Shown piece after piece: positions 1 to 8,556 of a stretch of DNA of 30,179 bases (the first letter of the stretch is position 1; each line of letters begins with the position of its first letter). Source of the DNA: an uncultured Bacteroidota bacterium (GTDB lineage Bacteria > Bacteroidota > Bacteroidia > Chitinophagales > UBA8649); contig CAKZQD010000018.1 in NCBI GenBank assembly GCA_937139485.1, positions 1 through 30,179 on the forward strand. Direction: 5' to 3'. The notes beneath the pieces were generated by a model that made no database searches, was not told the origin of the DNA, and saw nothing but the letters and a program-made list of their open reading frames with translations. The position numbers and the translations under genes were made by a program.

Positions 1-396
1 GTTTGCCTTACCAGCTTTGCAAATTTTGTCATATAAACATAAGAAGCATCTACATCGCCTTTCATTACCAATGCTTGTATTGAATTAAGCAAATTGAAAA
101 TAAAATGCGGATTCATTTGAGATTTCAAAGCTTTTAAGTTGGAAACGGCCAATTCGTTTTTTGTAGATTCTTCAAGTTTTAGATAGGCTTCGTCTAGTTT
201 TGTTTTTTGAGTACGAATGAGTTTTAATTTATTGAAAATGTAAACAGAAAATAATCCAATGAGTAAAGCAATAATTCCTGCGGCAAACATACCTAGCCTA
301 GTTTTTTGTTTTTGCTGTTCGGCAAGTTCTAGTTTTTGTTGGTTTTTAAGATCGTCTATTTCTTTTTGCTTTTCGTACTGAAATTCCGACTCAAAC
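1..396. repeat. Large dispersed repeat: copy of the kinase coiled-coil/TM/His_kinase coding segment, nt-identical by eye to 4061-4436; the repeat continues off the window
   Basis: Read side by side from gtttgccttaccagctttgcaaattttgtc through cttttcgtact. I found no mismatches, but this was done manually. Confidence 0.8.
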
Positions 397-1571
397 CTTA
401 TTGCAGCATTTACTTCTGCATCATTATACATTTTTTCAAACAAAACAAAATATTTATGATAAATTTCATTGGCTTTTTTATACTCTCCTGTTTTTACATA
501 TATTTTATTTAAAAGTAATGATGCTTGTCTTGTTCTATTTTTATCATTTACTAAAGGTAATAAATTATACGCCTCCTCTGCATATTTTTTCGCTTGCTTA
601 TAATTCTCTTGTTTAAAGTAAAAACTTGCAATATAGTCTAGACTTAAAGCTGTTAAATCATGAAATTCAGTTTCTTTGCTCATCTCTAAAGCCTTAAATG
701 TTAATTCTAAAGCTTTTTCACTATCTCCTTTAATATTATAAATAGATGCAATTGAGGAATATGCATAACCTAAATCATCTGGATTATCATTGATTTTAAA
801 GTTTAAAAGAGCAGAATCACAATACAATAGACCTAAATCAAGGTTTTCTTCCAAAACAACAACGGATGCTAAACTAATATATTCATATCCTATTCTAGAA
901 TAATCATTTCCCTTCTTAGCTATATTAAGTGCTATGTTATGGTTTTTTTTTGCTTCTACAAACGAATAGGTCATCGTTTGTATGTATCCTATCTCATCAT
1001 AATTTAATGCTATTTCCGTATGATATTCTTTACTATTGCTAAAATATTTTATAGATTCTTTGAATAAATCTATAGCTTCAGAGGTAGTTCCAGAATTTAT
1101 CTGCCAAGATCCTAAATTAGTCAAGGTCTTAGCAATATATATACTATCATTTATGTCTTTAAAAAGTTCTAATGCTTTTTGAGTAATTAATTTAGAGGAA
1201 TCTTCTAGACCTATTCTTTTAAGGTATTTACCTAGTTGTAGGTTTAAAATACCTTTATATTTTAAGAATGAATCGTCTTTAATGAGTGTTTTTTCTTCAA
1301 AAGAGAATGCTTGAGTAAAAGCAATTGTATATTTATCTTTTAAGTTTTTATTAAAGACATTATTAATTAAGTAATCTAATTTTTTAAATTTTGTAATTGG
1401 TTCTACATTATTATAATCTTTTAATACACTATCTAGTAAAATTTTGTCGTGAGGATGTGTCTTTTCAAGAATCAAAGAATCTATCAAATAAAATTCTTTA
1501 TCTGCAAAATTTTGAGCTGAAATATTAGAAATAGAAATGAATAAAAAGAATATAGTCTGTAATGTTTTCAT
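1..1571 (-). CDS. TPR-repeat periplasmic-sensor histidine kinase, LytS/YehU type (paralog 1); partial, the C-terminal catalytic core continues beyond the window start
   Basis: ATG is the reverse complement of 1569-1571, 19 nt downstream of the stop of the next kinase gene. The product starts with a signal-peptide-like MKTLQTIFFLFISISNISAQ. The in-frame translation I checked reads KEFYLIDSLILEKTHPHDK, parallel to DKDFYLIDSLEINK of paralog 3. Nt 1-396 are by eye identical to 4061-4436 and encode EYEKQKEIDDLKNQQKLELAEQQKQ, a TM helix, and [15 protein letters not shown]...NPHFIFN. The ORF track missed it because it has no stop inside the window. Confidence 0.7.
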   Translation of the reverse strand, partial: MKTLQTIFFLFISISNISAQNFADKEFYLIDSLILEKTHPHDKILLDSVLKDYNNVEPITKFKKLDYLINNVFNKNLKDKYTIAFTQAFSFEEKTLIKDDSFLKYKGILNLQLGKYLKRIGLEDSSKLITQKALELFKDINDSIYIAKTLTNLGSWQINSGTTSEAIDLFKESIKYFSNSKEYHTEIALNYDEIGYIQTMTYSFVEAKKNHNIALNIAKKGNDYSRIGYEYISLASVVVLEENLDLGLLYCDSALLNFKINDNPDDLGYAYSSIASIYNIKGDSEKALELTFKALEMSKETEFHDLTALSLDYIASFYFKQENYKQAKKYAEEAYNLLPLVNDKNRTRQASLLLNKIYVKTGEYKKANEIYHKYFVLFEKMYNDAEVNAAIRFESEFQYEKQKEIDDLKNQQKLELAEQQKQKTRLGMFAAGIIALLIGLFSVYIFNKLKLIRTQKTKLDEAYLKLEESTKNELAVSNLKALKSQMNPHFIFNLLNSIQALVMKGDVDASYVYMTKFAKLVRQ

Positions 1572-1590
1572 TTAATTGTTAGGTTTGTTA

Positions 1591-2330
1591 CTAAAAAACT
1601 TGCTTAAAAGGAATATAAAGTTTCACTTGTGTAGCTACAAATATATCATTTTCAAATACATCTTCATATTTAAAACCAAACTCGCCTTTATAAGTCTCGC
1701 TTAATATTTTAAAACGTTTTTCTATGGCTTTGGTAGAAAAAGATTCGTGTTTTGAGCCTTGCCTTGCTTTTATTTCTTTAGACTTTGCTCTTCCAATACC
1801 GTTATCTGTAATGGTACAAATGATTTTATCTTTTTGTTCAAACTCTATTTTTAGGGTTTTTTTCCCAGCTTTGTGCAGCAAACCGTGTACGAGTGCATTT
1901 TCTATAAATGGTTGTATTAAAAGTGGTGGAATTTCTATGCCTTCTATATCGTTATCTATTATTTTGTATTCAAAATCTTTTGAGAAACGCAATTTTTCTA
2001 AATCAAGATATAATTTCAGTAAATCTATTTCGTCTTCTAGTTCTACTAAATCTGCATCTGAAAAATGTAATGTTTGCCTTACCAGCTTTGCAAATTTTGT
2101 CATATAAACATAAGAAGCATCTACATCGCCTTTCATTACCAATGCTTGAATAGAATTGAGCAAATTAAAAATAAAATGCGGATTCATTTGAGATTTCAAA
2201 GCTTTTAAGTTGGAAATGGCTAATTCATTTTTTGTAGATTCTTCTAGTTTTAAATAGGCTTCGTCTAGTTTTGCTTTTTGGCTACGAATCAGTTTTAATC
2301 TGTTGAAAATAAATGCAATTAGTAAAGAAA
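1591..2330. repeat. About 95% identical copy of the kinase catalytic-core coding segment (compare 3577-4330)
   Basis: Protein differences are limited to a few patches: [62 protein letters not shown]. Nucleotide similarity decays near 2300-2340. Confidence 0.75.
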
Positions 2331-3558
2331 CAATTCCTGCAAAAACCAAAGCAAACCAACTAATAGTTTTACTTCTTTTTGCTTTTTCATCGGCTAATAA
2401 ACTTTGAGATTCTGCTAAAATTTTGCCTTGTTTGTATTTATCTGTTTCATATTGCGTTTCTAAATTGGCAATAATATTCAAATTCTCTGATTTTTGAATA
2501 CTATCCGTAAAATTATGGTATTTGTTGAGTGCTATATTGGCTTTTTTATATTGCTTTGAATTTTGGTAAAAACTACTTTTTGCATACAGATAGTCTTCAA
2601 TAATTTCCATATCTTGATTACCTTTTACAAGTATTTCTAATTCATCAAAATATAGTTTTGCTTTAGAAATATTATTTTCAATAGAATTAATAATTACTAA
2701 ATAATTTAAAGAACGAATGATGGCATTTTTGTGTTTAAGTTCTCTGCCAAGTTTTAGCTGTTTTAAAAAATATGTTTTAGATTTCTGATAATCTTTCATT
2801 AAGTAGTAAGAAAAGCCCATTTCGTCATAGTTAAGTGTTAAACTTGTTATGCGATTTATTTTTTTATTTATTTCGATAGCTTTTGCAGTAAAAATGATTG
2901 CTGAATCATATTTTTGTAATCTATTATAGTAATAGCCTAAACTTGAATAGTTGGCGGCGTTACAATGATTGTAGTAAGATTCATCTAAGGAGTCGCAATA
3001 ACTTAATGCCAAAAGGGTATATTTTATTGCTTCTTCTTTTTGATTTTGAATTTCGTATAGAGAAGCTATTCCGCCATAACAAGCAACTACAGCAGAATAA
3101 AGTTTTGTTTTTTCAGCTATTTTTAATGTTTCAAAATAATAAGCTGTTGCGTTTTTGTAATCACCTTTATTTTGATAAAGGTTAGCAATTTTTGCAGTCA
3201 TAGACAGTAAAGCAGGAGTATAGCCCAATGCTTTTCCCATTGTTTCTGCTTCTTTTAAAATAATTAATGCAGAATCTACTTTGCCTTTTTCTCTCAGCAC
3301 AAAGGCATATTCTTTTATGTATTGCATTATGTGTGTTGTGTCTTTAAGGCTACGGGCTAATTTTTCGCCTGAGACAATATATTTTAAATGCTTTTCTTTA
3401 TCTACACTTCGGTAATAACTGCATAAAGACATTTCGGTCTTCATCTTTATAGTGTCATTACTTGTGGTTTTCAATACTGTTTCTAGAGAGTCTATATTTA
3501 TTTGTTGAGCTTGAAGGCTCGAAACAAAAGCAAATAGTAGTAAAAAGAGGCATTTCAT
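1591..3558 (-). CDS. TPR-repeat periplasmic-sensor histidine kinase, LytS/YehU type (His_kinase PF06580-like plus HATPase_c), paralog 2
   Basis: 655 aa. N-terminal signal peptide [18 protein letters not shown]. About 370 aa of TPR-like Y/A/L-rich repeats. Single [22 protein letters not shown]. Cytoplasmic coiled coil. [13 protein letters not shown] motif (LytS/YehU His_kinase signature) and HATPase region TITDNGIG...GEFGF. Confidence 0.85.
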
Positions 3559-3576
3559 AAATTATTTGATTATTTT

Positions 3577-4436
3577 TTAAAAAACTTGTTTAAAAGGAAT
3601 ATAAAGTTTCACTTGTGTAGCTACAAATATATCGTTTTCAAATACATCTTCATATTTAAAACCAAACTCGCCTTTATAGGTTTCGCTCAATATTTTAAAA
3701 CGTTTTTCTATGGCTTTGGTAGAAAAAGATTTGTGCTGAATATCTTGCCTTGCTTTTATTTCTTTGGCTTTTGTTCGCCCTATTCCATTGTCTGTAATAG
3801 TACAAATAATTTTATCTTTTTGTTCAAACTCTATTTTTAAGGTTTTTTTCCCAGCTTTGTGCAGCAAACCGTGTACGAGTGCATTTTCTATAAATGGTTG
3901 TATTAAAAGTGGTGGAATTTCTATGCCTTCTATATCGTTATCTATTATTTTGTATTCAAAATCTTTTGAGAAACGCAATTTTTCTAAATCAAGATATAAT
4001 TTCAGTAAATCTATTTCGTCTTCTAGTTCTACTAAATCTGCATCTGAAAAATGTAATGTTTGCCTTACCAGCTTTGCAAATTTTGTCATATAAACATAAG
4101 AAGCATCTACATCGCCTTTCATTACCAATGCTTGTATTGAATTAAGCAAATTGAAAATAAAATGCGGATTCATTTGAGATTTCAAAGCTTTTAAGTTGGA
4201 AACGGCCAATTCGTTTTTTGTAGATTCTTCAAGTTTTAGATAGGCTTCGTCTAGTTTTGTTTTTTGAGTACGAATGAGTTTTAATTTATTGAAAATGTAA
4301 ACAGAAAATAATCCAATGAGTAAAGCAATAATTCCTGCGGCAAACATACCTAGCCTAGTTTTTTGTTTTTGCTGTTCGGCAAGTTCTAGTTTTTGTTGGT
4401 TTTTAAGATCGTCTATTTCTTTTTGCTTTTCGTACT
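3577..4436. repeat. Kinase-core repeat unit. 4061-4436 is identical to 1-396, and 3577-4330 is about 95% identical to 1591-2330
   Basis: Direct comparison of sequence blocks. The identity to the window-start copy extends further 5-prime (through the coiled-coil and TM coding region) than the identity to copy 2, suggesting recent gene conversion or duplication. Confidence 0.8.
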
Positions 4437-5643
4437 CATATTTTAGCCCTACTTTTAGTGCTTCTTTTTTGTTGCGATTGTATTTATATTCATCTTTTGT
4501 TTCGTAGTAAAGCTTTAAGGCTGTTATTTCCTTGTTTTTTTGTCCTAAACTGGCGTATATTTCACTTGCCAGTTGTGCAGATTGAATAATTCTATCTATT
4601 TCATTTAGTTTTTTAGATATTTTTAAAGAATTTTCAATTTCCTTTTCTGCCTTTTTATTTTTTCCTTTTAAGTGTAAAAACCGAGCAGAAAAATATAATC
4701 CTAATGCCTCAAACTCTTTCAAGTTTCGTTTTTTAGATAAACTAATCATTTCATTAATTAGCGTTTCTGACTGGTCAATACTGTCTTTATTAAAATAATA
4801 ATCAAGCATTATATGATTTGCTCTGTTTATTTGATATGCGTCGTTATTTTTTCCAATGAGTTTTTTTCCTTCTTTGGCGGCTAAATATGCCAATTTTTCT
4901 TCTTTTTTATAATTATAAATATCTGCTTTTGTAATATACAATTGCCCTTTTACTGCTGGATCTGCATTTTCAGCTAGTTGATTTATTGCATTATCTAAAG
5001 ATTTTATTGCCCGTTCTATATCTATATTTTCTTTCTGAATAGAAGCTATGTTTCTCAAAATAGTTCCTATAGACATTGCATCATTTAAGGCTTCTGCTAA
5101 AATTAAGGCTTCATTGAAATTTTCTAAAGCCAAAACTATATTTCCTTTGCTTGTATATATTGTTGCTTTGGCATTGTAAAGCTGTGTCACCCAAAAATTT
5201 TCATCTATTTCTTTAAACAATTCTAGTGCCTTGGTATAGTTTGCTAAAGCTGAGTCGGTTTTTAAACTTACATCGTAAGTGTAACCAAAAATACCTAAAG
5301 CCATTGCTTTGTAGAATTTATACTTTTTAATTTCTCTACTGTTTTTTGTGGTCAACAACCCCTTATTTGCTTTATTGTACAAAAAAAAATTATAAGGCTT
5401 CCATACTTTTTCGTCCCAACAGTTTTCTACTATTGCTGTAATAAACGATAAACGACTAGAATCGTATTCTGCTTTATGATATTGCGTTAAAAGGCTATCT
5501 AAAATTACTTTTTCTTGCGCAGAAACTTTATTTATTTCTAAAGAATCTATTAAGTAAAAATCTTTATCGCCATAGTTTTGTGCAGAAAGTTGAATTAAAA
5601 ATAAAAACGAAATTAGGAATAATATAAATTTATATGTGTTCAT
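3577..5643 (-). CDS. TPR-repeat periplasmic-sensor histidine kinase, LytS/YehU type, paralog 3
   Basis: 688 aa with the same architecture as paralog 2: signal peptide MNTYKFILFLISFLFLIQLSAQ, long TPR-like sensor region, TM GMFAAGIIALLIGLFSVYIF, NPHFIFN His_kinase motif, HATPase_c. The C-terminal 250 aa are about 95% identical to paralog 2 and are identical, where visible, to paralog 1. Confidence 0.85.
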   Translation of the reverse strand: MNTYKFILFLISFLFLIQLSAQNYGDKDFYLIDSLEINKVSAQEKVILDSLLTQYHKAEYDSSRLSFITAIVENCWDEKVWKPYNFFLYNKANKGLLTTKNSREIKKYKFYKAMALGIFGYTYDVSLKTDSALANYTKALELFKEIDENFWVTQLYNAKATIYTSKGNIVLALENFNEALILAEALNDAMSIGTILRNIASIQKENIDIERAIKSLDNAINQLAENADPAVKGQLYITKADIYNYKKEEKLAYLAAKEGKKLIGKNNDAYQINRANHIMLDYYFNKDSIDQSETLINEMISLSKKRNLKEFEALGLYFSARFLHLKGKNKKAEKEIENSLKISKKLNEIDRIIQSAQLASEIYASLGQKNKEITALKLYYETKDEYKYNRNKKEALKVGLKYEYEKQKEIDDLKNQQKLELAEQQKQKTRLGMFAAGIIALLIGLFSVYIFNKLKLIRTQKTKLDEAYLKLEESTKNELAVSNLKALKSQMNPHFIFNLLNSIQALVMKGDVDASYVYMTKFAKLVRQTLHFSDADLVELEDEIDLLKLYLDLEKLRFSKDFEYKIIDNDIEGIEIPPLLIQPFIENALVHGLLHKAGKKTLKIEFEQKDKIICTITDNGIGRTKAKEIKARQDIQHKSFSTKAIEKRFKILSETYKGEFGFKYEDVFENDIFVATQVKLYIPFKQVF

Positions 5644-5766: not shown

Positions 5767-5796
5767 AAAGCCATAGTGTTTTTTTACTATGGCTTT
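5767..5796. terminator. Hairpin (11-bp perfect stem aaagccatagt / actatggcttt, T-rich loop) between the peptide genes and the kinase operon; possible terminator or attenuator for the minus-strand peptide transcript
   Basis: Perfect inverted repeat read from the sequence. On the minus strand it is followed by a moderately U-rich tract, not a strong T-run. Confidence 0.45.
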
Positions 5797-5819
5797 ATAC
5801 TTATACTAAAAGATGATTA

Positions 5820-5948
5820 TTATAATAATTCTGGTTTTCCTCTAACAGAACTTGCAGAACGTTTTGTTCCTTTTCCGTTAGTTCCACCTTTTACGGCTTT
5901 TAAGTGTACAATTTTTTTCTCTTCAAATTTTATACTTATCTTTTTCAT
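5820..5948 (-). CDS. Small gene 1 of 3: 42-aa double-glycine-leader peptide precursor MKKISIKFEEKKIVHLKAVKGGTNGKGTKRSASSVRGKPELL
   Basis: ATG is the reverse complement of 5946-5948; TAA stop is the reverse complement of 5820-5822; 129 nt. It is part of a 166-bp tandem repeat. The leader KIVHLKAVKGG fits the LSxxELxxIxGG-type double-glycine leader. It is below the 60-aa cutoff of the ORF track. Confidence 0.55.
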   Translation of the reverse strand: MKKISIKFEEKKIVHLKAVKGGTNGKGTKRSASSVRGKPELL

Positions 5949-5985
5949 GATTTTTATTTTTTAGTTTATTAATAATAGTTTGTTT

Positions 5986-6114
5986 TTATAAAAGCTCTGG
6001 TTTTCCTCTAACAGAACTTGCTGTTCGTTTCGTTCCTTTTCCGTTAGTTCCACCTTTTATGGCTTTTAAGTGTACAATTTTTTTCTCTTCAAATTTTATA
6101 CTTATCTTTTTCAT
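5986..6114 (-). CDS. Small gene 2 of 3: 42-aa double-glycine-leader peptide precursor MKKISIKFEEKKIVHLKAIKGGTNGKGTKRTASSVRGKPELL
   Basis: This is the internal Met of the 77-aa track ORF 5986..6219. That ORF's N-terminal extension overlaps gene 3 out of frame, so the real gene is the 42-codon unit. Versus copy 1, six codons change: four are synonymous and two are conservative (V/I, S/T). Confidence 0.55.
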   Translation of the reverse strand: MKKISIKFEEKKIVHLKAIKGGTNGKGTKRTASSVRGKPELL

Positions 6115-6151
6115 GATTTTTATTTTATAGTTTGTTAATAATAGTTTGTTT

Positions 6152-6280
6152 TTATAAAAGTTCTGGTTTTCCACTAGCAGAACTTGCAGAACGTTTTGTT
6201 CCTTTTCCGTTAGATCCACCTTTTATGGCTTTAAGGTTTTTAATTTTTTTGCTTTCTAAATTTTTAAATGTCTTTTTCAT
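6152..6280 (-). CDS. Small gene 3 of 3: 42-aa double-glycine-leader peptide precursor MKKTFKNLESKKIKNLKAIKGGSNGKGTKRSASSASGKPELL
   Basis: ATG is the reverse complement of 6278-6280; TAA stop is the reverse complement of 6152-6154; 129 nt. It is the most divergent copy but keeps LKAIKGG, the NGKGTKRSASS core and the GKPELL end. Confidence 0.5.
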   Translation of the reverse strand: MKKTFKNLESKKIKNLKAIKGGSNGKGTKRSASSASGKPELL

Positions 6281-6346
6281 AATAACTTGTTGTTTTTTTG
6301 ATTATGATATAAATCTATTTACATTTTAAACGATTAAAAAAAATAG

Positions 6347-6379
6347 TTCATTAACAGCACTTTTTTTTCATTAACAGCA
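6347..6379 (-). promoter_or_regulatory. Perfect 13-bp direct repeat pair: TGCTGTTAATGAA, 7 nt, TGCTGTTAATGAA (minus strand), 66 nt upstream of the peptide-3 ATG; candidate LytTR-family response-regulator binding site and peptide-operon promoter
   Basis: Plus-strand ttcattaacagca occurs at 6347-6359 and at 6367-6379, a 20-bp centre-to-centre spacing. The repeats contain a CTGTTAAT core resembling AgrA/ComE-type half-sites, which are direct repeats with about two-turn spacing. A possible -7 box TAGATTTA lies downstream. Confidence 0.5.
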
Positions 6380-6507
6380 AAAAAGTAGTTTTTGAAATAA
6401 AAAAACACAACTAAATAGATACATGTGTTTTAAAACTAAATAATATTTAAATGTATAGGAAAAGCCTTAAAGCCTTGAGGGAATTGTATAAAACAAACTC
6501 AGTAAAA

Positions 6508-8556
6508 TCAATCTTTAGGATACTCAATTCTGATATGATAAATACTCGCAAGCATTTTTTTGAACACATCTTTACATCTTGATATTTCAGCAAAAGTAAT
6601 ATTCACGTTGTCAAATTGACCTCTGTTTTTTTGATAATCTATAATGCTATCTACCAAATTGCTCAAACTTTCGTGTGTAGGATTTTTTAAACTTCTAGAT
6701 GCCGCTTCTACACTATCTGCCATCATTAAAATAGCGTGTTCTTTTTTAAATGGCGCTGGGCCAGGATAGCAAAACATATCTTCGTCTATAACTTGGTCTG
6801 CATTTAGTTTGGCATGCATTCTATAAAAATATTCTACACGAGTGGTTCCGTGATGTGTTTTTATAAACTCTATAATTTGTAGAGGTAAACCATTTTTCTT
6901 AGCCAACTTTACACCTTCGGTTACGTGTGCTATAATTATTTTGGCACTTTCTTCATAGCTTAATTTCTCGTGAGGATTTTCTTCTGGAAACTGGTTTTCT
7001 ATAAAATATATACGATGTTCCATTTTTCCAATGTCGTGATATAAAGCACCAACTTTTACCAATAATGAATTTGCTTTTATTTCAGAAGCCGCCGCCTCAG
7101 CCAAATTGGCAACCTGAAGAGAATGCTGAAACGTACCAGGTGCTTCTAAAGACAATCTTTTTAAAAGTGGCTTGTTCAAATCTGTATATTCTACCAAAGA
7201 TATATCTGAAAGTAAACCAAATATTTTTTCAAAGAAAACAATAAGAGGATATGCTAAAAAAGTTAGAAATACATTTAATGCCAAATATGCTATTATACCA
7301 TAATTTATAGAGGTAAACGTAGCACCTTCTATTAAAGATATACCAACAAATGAAAGTAAATATGCTACAAAAATAAGTCCAATGGCTTTAAAAAACTGCG
7401 ACCAATAACGAACATTTTTATTACCATAAATAGCTACAACACCAGCAACCAATTGTATAAACAAAAAGCCAAAAACTTTTGGTACTAATAAGCCTGCCAA
7501 CAATATAATAGCCAAATGAACATAAAGAGCCGTTTCTCTTTTAAAAAACGCTCGTAGTATTATTGGTACTATAGTTAGCGGTATAATATATATGGCATTT
7601 TGACTATAATTTAAAAATATAGCAACAAGAAATAAAGAAATATTTATAAGTAAAAATATAAGCAAAAACTGCCTAAGGCGTTTAAATATATATGTTTGAT
7701 ACAAAAACAAGTAAAAAGTAAGAATAGAAATAATAATAGCAACCAACAAAAAATAACCAATATTCATGGCGTTCATTTGTTTGTTGTTGAGCACCTGTTC
7801 AGAATATTTTAATTTGTATGATTCTAGTTTTTGAAACTTAGAAGCATCTACTATTTCGCCTTTACCAATAATTTTTTCGCCTTTTTTTACTAAACCATTA
7901 GTTTTAGAAACTTCTTCAAGTTTTTTAGCTAGTAGCTTATTGTTTAGCTCTTTGTCATAAATTATATTTGGCGTAATACTTATCTTTATAATAGATTTTA
8001 GAATATTGTTCTTTTCGTCAGATCCAAAATTATTTTCATTGATAAGTTTTTTTACTTCAGCAATACTGTAAAAATTGCTACTAGGTTTTCTTGTGGCAAC
8101 ATTGTTATTTTCTACTACAACTATGTCTTCCATACTTTTTTTATCTATAAGTCCTTTACTATAAATTTTCTGTATGAATTGTTTTCCTTCTTCAAAAATA
8201 AATTTCTTTTCTATAAAACTTTCTTCTACAGAATCTAATTGAATAAAACGAGCATCAAAAAGTTTTTGATATTTAGAAAACACCAGAGAGTCGTTGTTTT
8301 GAATAATATAGTGTTTTAAATGATTGGTTCGCACTTCATTTTGCCCAGCTAAAAAATCTTCATCTGCTTTTAGAATAGCAAAATCGTAAGGAGAAAATAA
8401 TTCTTTATATTGCCAAGGTTTTCCTTTTTCAAAATCGAAACTAATAGTGTTTGTTTTTGGAATAAGCCAAAAAATAAACAAGACACTCGCAAACGCCAAA
8501 CTGAATTGCAAAAATTGTTTGGTTTTATTACCTAAGTCTTTCCAAAAACTACTCAT
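6508..8556 (-). CDS. 7TM receptor with extracellular domain and intracellular HD hydrolase domain (7TMR-HD / HDIG family, YqfF-like)
   Basis: 682 aa. N-terminal TM, large extracytoplasmic region, about 7 hydrophobic helices, and a C-terminal HD domain with LYHDIGK. No GYP motif was seen. Confidence 0.8.
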   Translation of the reverse strand: MSSFWKDLGNKTKQFLQFSLAFASVLFIFWLIPKTNTISFDFEKGKPWQYKELFSPYDFAILKADEDFLAGQNEVRTNHLKHYIIQNNDSLVFSKYQKLFDARFIQLDSVEESFIEKKFIFEEGKQFIQKIYSKGLIDKKSMEDIVVVENNNVATRKPSSNFYSIAEVKKLINENNFGSDEKNNILKSIIKISITPNIIYDKELNNKLLAKKLEEVSKTNGLVKKGEKIIGKGEIVDASKFQKLESYKLKYSEQVLNNKQMNAMNIGYFLLVAIIISILTFYLFLYQTYIFKRLRQFLLIFLLINISLFLVAIFLNYSQNAIYIIPLTIVPIILRAFFKRETALYVHLAIILLAGLLVPKVFGFLFIQLVAGVVAIYGNKNVRYWSQFFKAIGLIFVAYLLSFVGISLIEGATFTSINYGIIAYLALNVFLTFLAYPLIVFFEKIFGLLSDISLVEYTDLNKPLLKRLSLEAPGTFQHSLQVANLAEAAASEIKANSLLVKVGALYHDIGKMEHRIYFIENQFPEENPHEKLSYEESAKIIIAHVTEGVKLAKKNGLPLQIIEFIKTHHGTTRVEYFYRMHAKLNADQVIDEDMFCYPGPAPFKKEHAILMMADSVEAASRSLKNPTHESLSNLVDSIIDYQKNRGQFDNVNITFAEISRCKDVFKKMLASIYHIRIEYPKD

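Follow-up and report, generated by a model that had tools for sequence, protein, structure and literature searches.

The window, a stretch of 30,179 nt that makes up the whole of its contig, carries three adjacent minus-strand genes for paralogous sensor kinases: K3 (5643..3577; 688 aa, called from its ORF, Pfam matches, an AF2 model and hydropathy), K2 (3558..1591; a 655-aa paralog of K3, called from its ORF, Pfam and pairwise identity) and K1 (1571..1), a third paralog of which the contig end leaves only the 5' part, coding for 523 aa; its full-length ortholog is P0002 (683 aa; 522 of the 523 residues identical). The ORF coordinates agree with the original prediction of three consecutive genes 18-19 nt apart, the gaps measuring 18 nt between K3 and K2 (3559-3576) and 19 nt between K2 and K1 (1572-1590). 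Upstream of K3, beyond an intrinsic-terminator-like hairpin on the same strand (5767..5796, kept in the related contig L002), lie three tandem 166-bp units (5804-6301), each coding one 42-aa peptide on the minus strand: P3, the first gene of the array (6152..6280), P2 (5986..6114) and P1 (5820..5948; MKKISIKFEEKKIVHLKAVKGG-TNGKGTKRSASSVRGKPELL), with P2 differing from P1 by two changes, S to T in the core and V to I in the leader. On sequence grounds, the peptides are real coding genes; their core is kept through synonymous changes.

K3 consists of a signal peptide (aa 1-21), a TPR superhelix (aa 42-366), a stalk/TM helix (aa 369-460, with the TM segment at 433-451), a DHp domain with His494 in an NPHF motif (PF06580, aa 483-561), and a predicted ATPase domain up to aa 688. 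All three genes encode about eight TPRs, and K1, K2 and K3 are all matched by TPR_12, with up to 58 bits, and by other TPR models in Pfam; the AF2 model of K3 (pLDDT 82.9) folds aa 42-366 into some 16 helices arranged in pairs, with pLDDT >90. The full-length kinases match His_kinase (PF06580) at E 2.5e-22 and 3.5e-22 (79 bits; cut-off 25.2), and the truncated K1 does so at E 3e-11. HATPase_c reaches 18.5-19.2 bits, below the Pfam cut-off of 26.4, with the N-box and G-box residues invariant in homologs; in K1 the contig ends before the ATPase domain. The domain searches proposed earlier thus find TPR and PF06580 in every gene, and HATPase_c at sub-threshold level in the two complete ones; QMNPHF and the catalytic residues of the H, N and G boxes are invariant in 18 aligned homologs. 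By hydropathy, each protein has only two hydrophobic segments, an N-terminal signal-like one, ending in LSA/QN, LQA/QQ or ISA/QN, and a single TM helix; the TPR domain, which had been placed in the periplasm, falls between the two, and a cytoplasmic location is not indicated. The kinase domain of GanS (6swj), the only solved relative found by sequence, matches that of K3 both by fold (Foldseek) and by sequence (E 3e-14). The architecture is that of a periplasmic TPR domain fused to a PF06580 transmitter of the LytS/YehU class.

The sensor domains of K1-K3 are mutually 15-40% identical (14-50% per block of 50 aa; 20-38% for K2 against K3), while the kinase cores are 94-100% identical at the nucleotide level. 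For K2 and K3, the cytoplasmic cores agree in 228/238 aa (95.8%) and 672/714 nt (94.1%), in keeping with the core identity of about 95% and the diverged sensors noted earlier. The exact nucleotide identity claimed between K1 and K3 exists, but over 379 nt rather than 396, and in another register: positions 1..379, coding for the stalk, TM and DHp of K1, are 100% identical to 4058..4436 in K3 (an offset of 4057), not to a stretch starting at 4061. K2 and K3 share a block of 294 nt without a difference (1855..2148 and 3841..4134, respectively), of which 2072-2148 also equal K1 1-77, making this segment common to all three genes. Given 42 differences over 714 nt, the chance of such a run is roughly 1e-5; the K2/K3 identity thus comes in patches, the pattern expected of gene conversion, rather than being uniform, and the differences (pS 0.21, pN 0.02 for the core) cluster outside the identical block. 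The same mosaic occurs in L087, an independent lineage (sensors 14-44% identical in aa, cores 95-100% in nt), and across related contigs the core variants form a strain-specific patchwork. Both the patchy exact blocks and the recurrence in this unrelated lineage fit the gene conversion proposed originally, which we infer, from the sequences, as the cause of the mosaic.

The earlier warning about assembly collapse was well placed, as the contig stops at the repeat and other assemblies have the genes in another order or have just one kinase. Specifically, collapsed or mis-threaded repeats in a short-read metagenome, possibly of mixed strains, could account for how alike the kinases are, how they are ordered or how many there are: the window equals the entire contig, and its end, 77 nt into the segment shared by the three genes, looks like an assembly-graph junction, as would be expected of a de Bruijn graph with k=77. 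The gene order is S3-S2-S1 in the window and X-S1-S2-RR in L001 and L003, where S1 leads into a K3-type core, followed by S2, a fourth core variant, and then the response regulator (RR); L002, a close relative, shows a single kinase with a single peptide. Because the related contigs disagree on order, neither the number of kinases (3 or 4) nor the linkage of sensors to cores is secure, and some of the exact identity or of that linkage could have arisen in assembly. Overall, misassembly is quite unlikely as the explanation: the three distinct sensors are real, and their clearly different sequences recur across independent assemblies; the junctions of tailA to S2 and of tailB to S1 agree between assemblies; with about 30 differing positions, the core tails represent distinct loci; and the mosaic is also present in L087, from another lineage and another assembler. 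An artefact could thus alter count and linkage, but not the existence of multiple paralogs with homogenised cores. More generally, repeats of this kind break and mis-thread short-read assemblies, so that kinase copy number in MAGs is unreliable.

Within the 30-kb window, no regulator, exporter or cargo gene is found. The single LytTR regulator anticipated for the array lies outside it, but directly downstream of the last kinase in L001 and L002, where an RR with Response_reg and LytTR domains is encoded; the evidence for this link comes from contigs of other samples, at 93-99.9% identity. In the wider kinase family, a LytTR RR is adjacent in 75 of 80 genome loci, and TPR-LytS-type kinases with LytTR regulators are very common in Bacteroidota (at least 595 genome loci matched).

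Ahead of the peptide array stand two 13-bp direct repeats with a period of 20 bp (TGCYRTTAATGRA), followed at 28-29 nt by a -7 box of the form TAnnTTTG, which is the Bacteroidota -7 consensus. This pair is a putative operator for the LytTR regulator, and the window has it exactly once, as an exact repeat on the minus strand (TGCTGTTAATGAA at 6379..6367 and 6359..6347, together 6347..6379); 29 nt after its promoter-proximal copy follows the -7-like element TAGATTTA (6310..6317), which is imperfect and stands in register with homologous TAnnTTTG boxes. In L001 and L002 the pair recurs ahead of both the RR gene and the cargo gene downstream, and in L085 and L089/L090 ahead of the cargo genes and RR, making three lineages overall; the cargo genes, which carry Por_Secre_tail, are orthologous at 41-54% identity. 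Nine promoters align in register; in the seven whose box pair is clear, box 2 is followed at 28-29 nt by a TAnnTTTG-like element. The remaining ~80 Bacteroidota loci (~1.09 Mb searched) lack the pair, and none lies ahead of the kinase genes or upstream of the single peptide gene in L002. LytTR regulators bind paired direct repeats of 9-10 bp with a period of ~21 bp (PMC2766830; PMC4227749), and position and conservation suggest that the regulator would bind at the repeats described here, which stand ahead of both the peptide gene (in the window) and the regulator gene (in L001, at 4301-4339, and in L002, at 3132-3160). Kept in three lineages, this candidate operator and promoter layout would define a small regulon comprising the regulator, a T9SS cargo protein and the peptides.

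With the regulator adjacent in related contigs and a putative site ahead of the peptide genes, the locus looks like a circuit running from several sensors to one regulator, possibly with a peptide loop. We consider it probable, at roughly 70%, that it represents a two-component system of the many-to-one kind, in which gene conversion maintains the uniformity of the cores and the one LytTR regulator has the peptide array in its regulon. The locus would form the sensor end of such a system in a MAG labelled as Chitinophagales (Bacteroidota). Its paralogous kinases, three or more and probably co-transcribed, would each expose a different 8-repeat TPR superhelix in the periplasm and share one cytoplasmic DHp/ATPase core of the LytS/YehU (PF06580) class. 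Recurrent gene conversion would hold these cores nearly identical, likely because every kinase must phosphorylate the same partner. This partner, a LytTR response regulator presumably encoded just past the contig end, would receive phosphoryl groups from the kinases, probably bind as a dimer to the two 13-bp repeats upstream of the -7 box, and activate its own gene along with that of the conserved, T9SS-type secreted repeat protein; the three GG-motif peptide genes would be a further target in this lineage. The homogenised cores read as the footprint of selection for convergence on one regulator; duplicated kinases that keep the partner-specifying core identical while their sensors diverge are the opposite of the usual insulation of two-component pathways.

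For the signal itself, the peptides are a candidate. They belong to a wider family (18 representatives) with the common pattern MKKSIKNLE..KAVKGG-xNGKGTK...PELL, in which the KGG motif at residues 20-22 is conserved, and their genes adjoin kinases not only in the window but also in L002 and on the contig of P0122/P0127. Together with their coding nature and the LytTR-type putative operator directly upstream of the array, which adds support to peptide sensing, this would fit full quorum sensing, in which the GG-motif peptides would be cut after KGG and exported, the cationic core of ~20 aa would bind in the groove of at least one periplasmic TPR sensor, and the kinases would, by activating the LytTR regulator, switch on the peptide array, in a loop like those of ComCDE, Blp or Agr but in a Gram-negative. 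The TPR model is also most like peptide-groove binders in Foldseek (LGN/Pins E 5e-12; Rap/NprR ~1e-7), a similarity that is generic to the fold. Yet the peptide cores differ at only 1-3 of 20 residues among P1-P3, against sensors as divergent as those described above; because the cores are nearly identical, the three peptides do not map onto the three sensors, as had been suggested from their equal number. Such pairing is also disfavoured by L002, with one of each, and by sister lineages that have the same kinase, RR, operator and cargo module, and no such peptide in the fetched DNA. Furthermore, a C39-peptidase ABC exporter is absent from the 30-kb window and from L001/L002, no GG-leader model in Pfam or NCBIfam matches the peptides, and the L002 peptide gene has no upstream box pair. 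Full quorum sensing is thus doubtful. That the peptides are exported and sensed by at least one TPR domain, closing an autoinduction loop, is speculative and can be held only tentatively, and it seems rather improbable that the locus embodies a ComCDE-like autoinduction in Gram-negative Bacteroidota, with undescribed GG-motif peptides (…KAVKGG-xNGKGTK…PELL) sensed by periplasmic TPR kinases, a receptor array sharing a gene-converted core and a LytTR regulator, and control over T9SS-secreted proteins.

The kinases may instead sense something else, such as proteins of the envelope or the extracellular space, the cargo of the T9SS (or the C-terminal domain of such cargo), or molecules from a host or prey, with the peptides as mere output. 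The module conserved across lineages lacks peptides and comprises one or more kinases, the RR and a T9SS cargo gene under box control, and the divergent sensors argue for several different ligands. A precedent is provided by the PorXY system, for which a T9SS cargo protein is reported to act as the ligand (PMC12152298), and for FimS, another periplasmic-TPR kinase of Bacteroidota, the signal is not established (PMC11053733). Conversely, the hydrophilic, Cys-free core of 20 aa is unlike a membrane-active bacteriocin, and the tight linkage of peptide and kinase arrays in this lineage would have to be coincidence; we regard sensing of another signal as quite possible, if somewhat short of even odds. 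The locus offers a candidate peptide signal together with a receptor candidate outside the cytoplasm, in a phylum for which signalling by peptides has hardly been described.

In ComCDE, BlpRH, SilAB and AgrCA of Firmicutes, as here, genes for small Gly-Gly-motif peptides adjoin a kinase and a LytTR RR, and paired direct repeats (~20-21 bp period) upstream of the peptide and regulator genes give a positive-feedback layout. Their kinase is a polytopic HPK10 receptor, whereas here it is a single-TM PF06580 protein with a large periplasmic TPR domain; the present system, in which the peptide signal is a candidate only, differs further in being Gram-negative, in having no nearby C39 ABC exporter and several kinases per regulator, and in its 13-bp repeats with a 20-bp period. 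The RRNPP receptors (Rap, NprR, PlcR, PrgX) have a TPR superhelix of similar size, binding short hydrophilic peptides, but are cytoplasmic, depend on import of the peptide and work by phosphatase activity or DNA binding, in contrast to the extracytoplasmic, kinase-fused TPR domain described here. The original analogy to them holds for structure (the Rap and NprR matches) and for nothing beyond, eukaryotic LGN/Pins matching better; identity with an RRNPP receptor is rejected in view of the signal peptide, the TM helix, the kinase output and the generic nature of the fold similarity.

FimS has two TM helices, a classical HisKA/HATPase_c transmitter and a non-LytTR partner, and is a single gene where the kinases here form an array. 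It resembles them in its periplasmic TPR sensor, with weak sequence similarity confined to the TPR part (47.7 and 33.9 bits to the equivalog NF053520, whose cut-off for a full-length match is 600). The statement that periplasmic-TPR kinases lack functional characterisation does not apply to FimS, which has been studied in P. gingivalis and has a cluster of ~8 TPR motifs (PMC11053733); it stands for TPR-LytS-type kinases paired with LytTR regulators, for which no functional study was found in the searchable literature.

LytS-LytR, BtsS-BtsR (YehU-YehT) and YpdA-YpdB, as well as GanS, share the PF06580 DHp domain and an ATPase core (predicted in the present kinases), and in the three pairs the LytTR partner binds direct repeats, as proposed here; these are one-to-one pairs that sense via multi-TM 5TM-Lyt/GAF or other domains, whereas here the sensor is a periplasmic TPR superhelix. 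Many-to-one relays, with differing inputs and one partner, are known from Vibrio, where LuxN, LuxQ and CqsS feed LuxU, and from B. subtilis, where KinA-E feed Spo0F; their kinases are dispersed and have non-identical cores, whereas the kinases described here are tandem paralogs whose partner-specifying cores have been homogenised at the nucleotide level.

The first 5.6 kb of the window hold three consecutive kinase genes on the minus strand, K3 (5643..3577, 688 aa), K2 (3558..1591, 655 aa) and K1 (1571..1, 523 aa, open at the contig end); the gaps between them measure 18 and 19 nt, in line with the tight spacing of the original prediction, and a search for terminator-like sites between the three genes found none. 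A terminator-like hairpin, with an 11-bp stem followed by a T-rich tail, does lie on the same strand at 5767-5796, between K3 and the array of three peptide genes upstream (5820-6280); the kinases may thus have their own promoter, or rely on read-through past this hairpin. In Pfam, TPR_12 and other TPR models match the N-terminal 370-430 residues of the kinases, and the LytS/YehU-type His_kinase domain (PF06580) is found with 79 bits; the match to HATPase_c is sub-threshold, and an alignment of 18 homologs shows no variation at the residues of the H-box (QMNPHF), N-box and G-box. In a hydropathy scan each kinase has just two hydrophobic segments, an N-terminal signal-like segment (ending in LSA, LQA and ISA, followed by QN, QQ and QN, respectively) and a single TM helix; because the kinase core must be cytoplasmic, the TPR domain must be outside the cytoplasm, which agrees with the periplasmic sensor, signal peptide and one TM helix previously proposed.

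The AlphaFold2 model of K3 (mean pLDDT 82.9) comprises a superhelix of about eight TPRs at aa 42-366, where pLDDT mostly exceeds 90; from aa 369 to 460 one uninterrupted helix crosses the membrane, and it leads to the pair of DHp helices and then to the ATPase domain, of alpha/beta type. Foldseek searches of the PDB match the model best to LGN/Pins TPR domains, which bind peptides (E 5e-12), with Rap and NprR ranking behind them (E ~1e-7); the kinase part matches GanS (6swj), which is also the sole solved relative that sequence search detects.

The three genes are mosaics, as had been claimed, with highly similar cores and diverged sensors. The whole cytoplasmic core of K2 is identical to that of K3 in 228 of 238 residues and 672 of 714 nucleotides (pS 0.21, pN 0.02), with the differences clustered outside a block of 294 nt that contains none (1855-2148 = 3841-4134); the sensors share 14-50% identity per 50-residue block. 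At 40-50% nucleotide identity the synonymous sites of the sensors are saturated, and dN/dS is evaluable for the cores only. Between K1 and K3 there is not a single difference over 379 nt (1-379 = 4058-4436), so that the exact repeat originally predicted between them does exist, in a register differing by 3 and over a length 17 nt shorter than was claimed. High identity ends at the TM helix between K2 and K3 and at the periplasmic stalk between K1 and K3; the homogenized unit is therefore the signaling module. This pattern recurs in L087, which comes from another lineage and another assembly: its two tandem kinases, sharing about 37% identity with K3, have sensors 14-44% identical and cores 95-100% identical at the nucleotide level. 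It is not a rule that tandem arrays always have homogenized cores, as this is ruled out by the three tandem kinases of locus L027 (about 60% nucleotide identity) and the kinases of L090, from a sister lineage (77-84%). Compared across assemblies, the core variants form strain-specific patchworks, which is what ongoing gene conversion among kinase paralogs would give. The sister-lineage loci L089 and L090 also carry a 178-aa kinase remnant, consisting of the core only, between the gene for a secreted T9SS cargo protein and a full TPR kinase (for example L090 5756-6292); it is evidence for the turnover of kinase copies at loci of this type.

The number and order of the kinases are to be read with the caution over assembly that the original prediction advised. 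The window is an entire contig of 30,179 nt, which ends exactly 77 nt after the K2 sequence joins that of K1 and K3 (window 1-77), in a segment identical in all three kinase genes; we infer that this end is a de Bruijn graph junction, as expected with k=77. Two independent MEGAHIT contigs from another project, L001 (1-6907) and L003 (1-4118), are 99.9% identical in their unique parts and thread differently: a K2-type core tail is followed by K1 (its sensor S1 with a K3-type core), by the K2 sensor S2 with a fourth, more divergent core, by a response regulator and then by the cargo gene; the order of the sensors in the window is S3, S2, S1. The junctions of S2 to the common core (window) and to the divergent core (L001) are each spanned by less than 30 nt, so that the reads of the respective sample must contain them. 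There are three possibilities: a total of four kinases, S2 being present twice beside S3 and S1, with all contigs being true sub-paths; differences between strains; or chimerism in some of the paths. L002 (1-4297; GCA_049609865.1), a relative with 93% identity, has one peptide, one kinase (S3 with the divergent core) and the regulator, an arrangement compatible with deletion by recombination between the repeats as well as with assembly collapse; a fragment of an IS1595-like transposase lies upstream. A further contig, L095, has 1.7x coverage, is of low quality and probably chimeric, and is uninformative on gene order. Three different sensors exist, recurring in independent assemblies, and the core tails are distinct sequences.

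A search of the window for a response regulator found none. The single common regulator that had been postulated is nevertheless present in L001 and L002, directly after the last kinase, as a 247-aa protein with Response_reg and LytTR domains; an adjacent LytTR regulator occurs at 75 of 80 genome loci of the wider family, nearly all of which have a single kinase, and the regulator of the sister lineage (L089/L090) is 83% identical. The cargo genes downstream of it are orthologous, at 41-54% identity, and encode Por_Secre_tail domains.

A paired 13-bp direct repeat, TGCTGTTAATGAA, is the probable operator of this regulator. In the window it occurs in exact form only at 6379..6367 and 6359..6347 on the minus strand, with a 20-bp period; the first peptide gene begins about 65 nt downstream. 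LytTR regulators bind as dimers to paired direct repeats of 9-10 bp with a period of about 21 bp (PMC2766830; PMC4227749). The window's pair recurs in front of the regulator gene in both L001 and L002, with a near-identical pair before the next gene downstream; the pairs of L001 lie at 4301-4339 and 5332-5364. The motif is also paired ahead of the cargo gene that follows the regulator in L085 (whose kinase is 39% identical), and ahead of two cargo genes and the regulator in L089/L090; two more promoters of L090, one for a 340-aa gene and one for a short transcript, have more degenerate versions. Nine repeat promoters align in register, and the seven with a clear pair follow the layout box, 7 nt, box, 28-29 nt, TAnnTTTG, the last being the Bacteroidota -7 consensus; the window carries TAGATTTA at this position. 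The pair is absent from the other ~80 Bacteroidota loci searched (about 1.09 Mb), and a metagenome scan with the operator pattern returned a single contig, unrelated and high in GC (L088). In L090, the region 6324-6500 holds a promoter with a repeat pair and a TAAGTTTG box and, about 100 nt further on, an intrinsic terminator. The two have no ORF separating them; this is a candidate for a small RNA under control of the regulator, or for a peptide gene in decay.

We consider it likely, at a probability of about 0.7, that the locus is a many-to-one two-component system, in which varied TPR sensors share a gene-converted core and one regulator activates its own, the cargo and the peptide promoters. 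Several sensors with different inputs would feed one common type of transmitter core, which gene conversion would homogenize such that all kinases address one LytTR regulator; this would activate the box-bearing promoters of its own gene and of the conserved T9SS cargo gene, and the promoter of the peptide array would be a further target in this lineage.

The three peptides of the array, 42 aa each, have a common leader ending in KGG and a hydrophilic cationic core (TNGKGTKRSASSVRGKPELL). Several differences in the core-coding part, including those to L002, are synonymous, and the peptides are therefore real coding genes. They match no model in Pfam or NCBIfam. Searched exhaustively with a profile, 1.84 billion representatives yielded 18 relatives, with the pattern MKKSIKNLE..KAVKGG-xNGKGTK-(variable S/T/A/Q-rich)-[KR]PELL. 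Most of these lie on contigs only 0.5-0.9 kb long, suggestive of tandem arrays at which assemblies break; HMMs of the close and the wider family found no member outside this lineage in the ~94 fetched loci. Directly upstream of the array (6508-8556, minus strand) lies a gene for a 7TM receptor that combines an extracellular domain with an HD/HDIG hydrolase domain inside the cell (7TMR-HDED, 7TM-7TMR_HD, HD), which is not the neighbor in L002. We reject the proposed match of three peptides to three sensors on the basis of sequence, as the peptide cores differ at 1-3 positions and the sensors are only 14-50% identical per block. That the peptides feed back as kinase ligands at all, for which the operator in front of them and the peptide-groove-like TPR fold would speak, seems to us rather unlikely; as a general property of the family, it is opposed by this same disparity between near-identical peptides and very different sensors, by the lack of a nearby exporter, and by the absence of the peptides from sister loci. 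The peptides may instead be output only, the kinases sensing other envelope or extracellular molecules, a reading we hold tentatively, at somewhat less than even odds. The one peptide gene in L002 lacks the repeat pair, and its -7 box is a perfect TAAGTTTG.

A literature search found no paper describing the TPR-kinase architecture, the peptide family or the operator. The many-to-one circuit that we favor resembles ComCDE, Blp, Sil and Agr in logic, but its kinase differs from theirs in class and topology, and the locus stands outside the RRNPP receptors. In sensor type it is like FimS of P. gingivalis, which is likewise a periplasmic TPR kinase, with a ligand still unknown (PMC11053733); an orthologous relationship is ruled out (48 bits against a cut-off of 600), as is membership in FimS, BT3442 or HaaT, the scores being far below the cut-offs. 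By its transmitter and regulator, the locus belongs with the LytS/YehU-LytTR systems.
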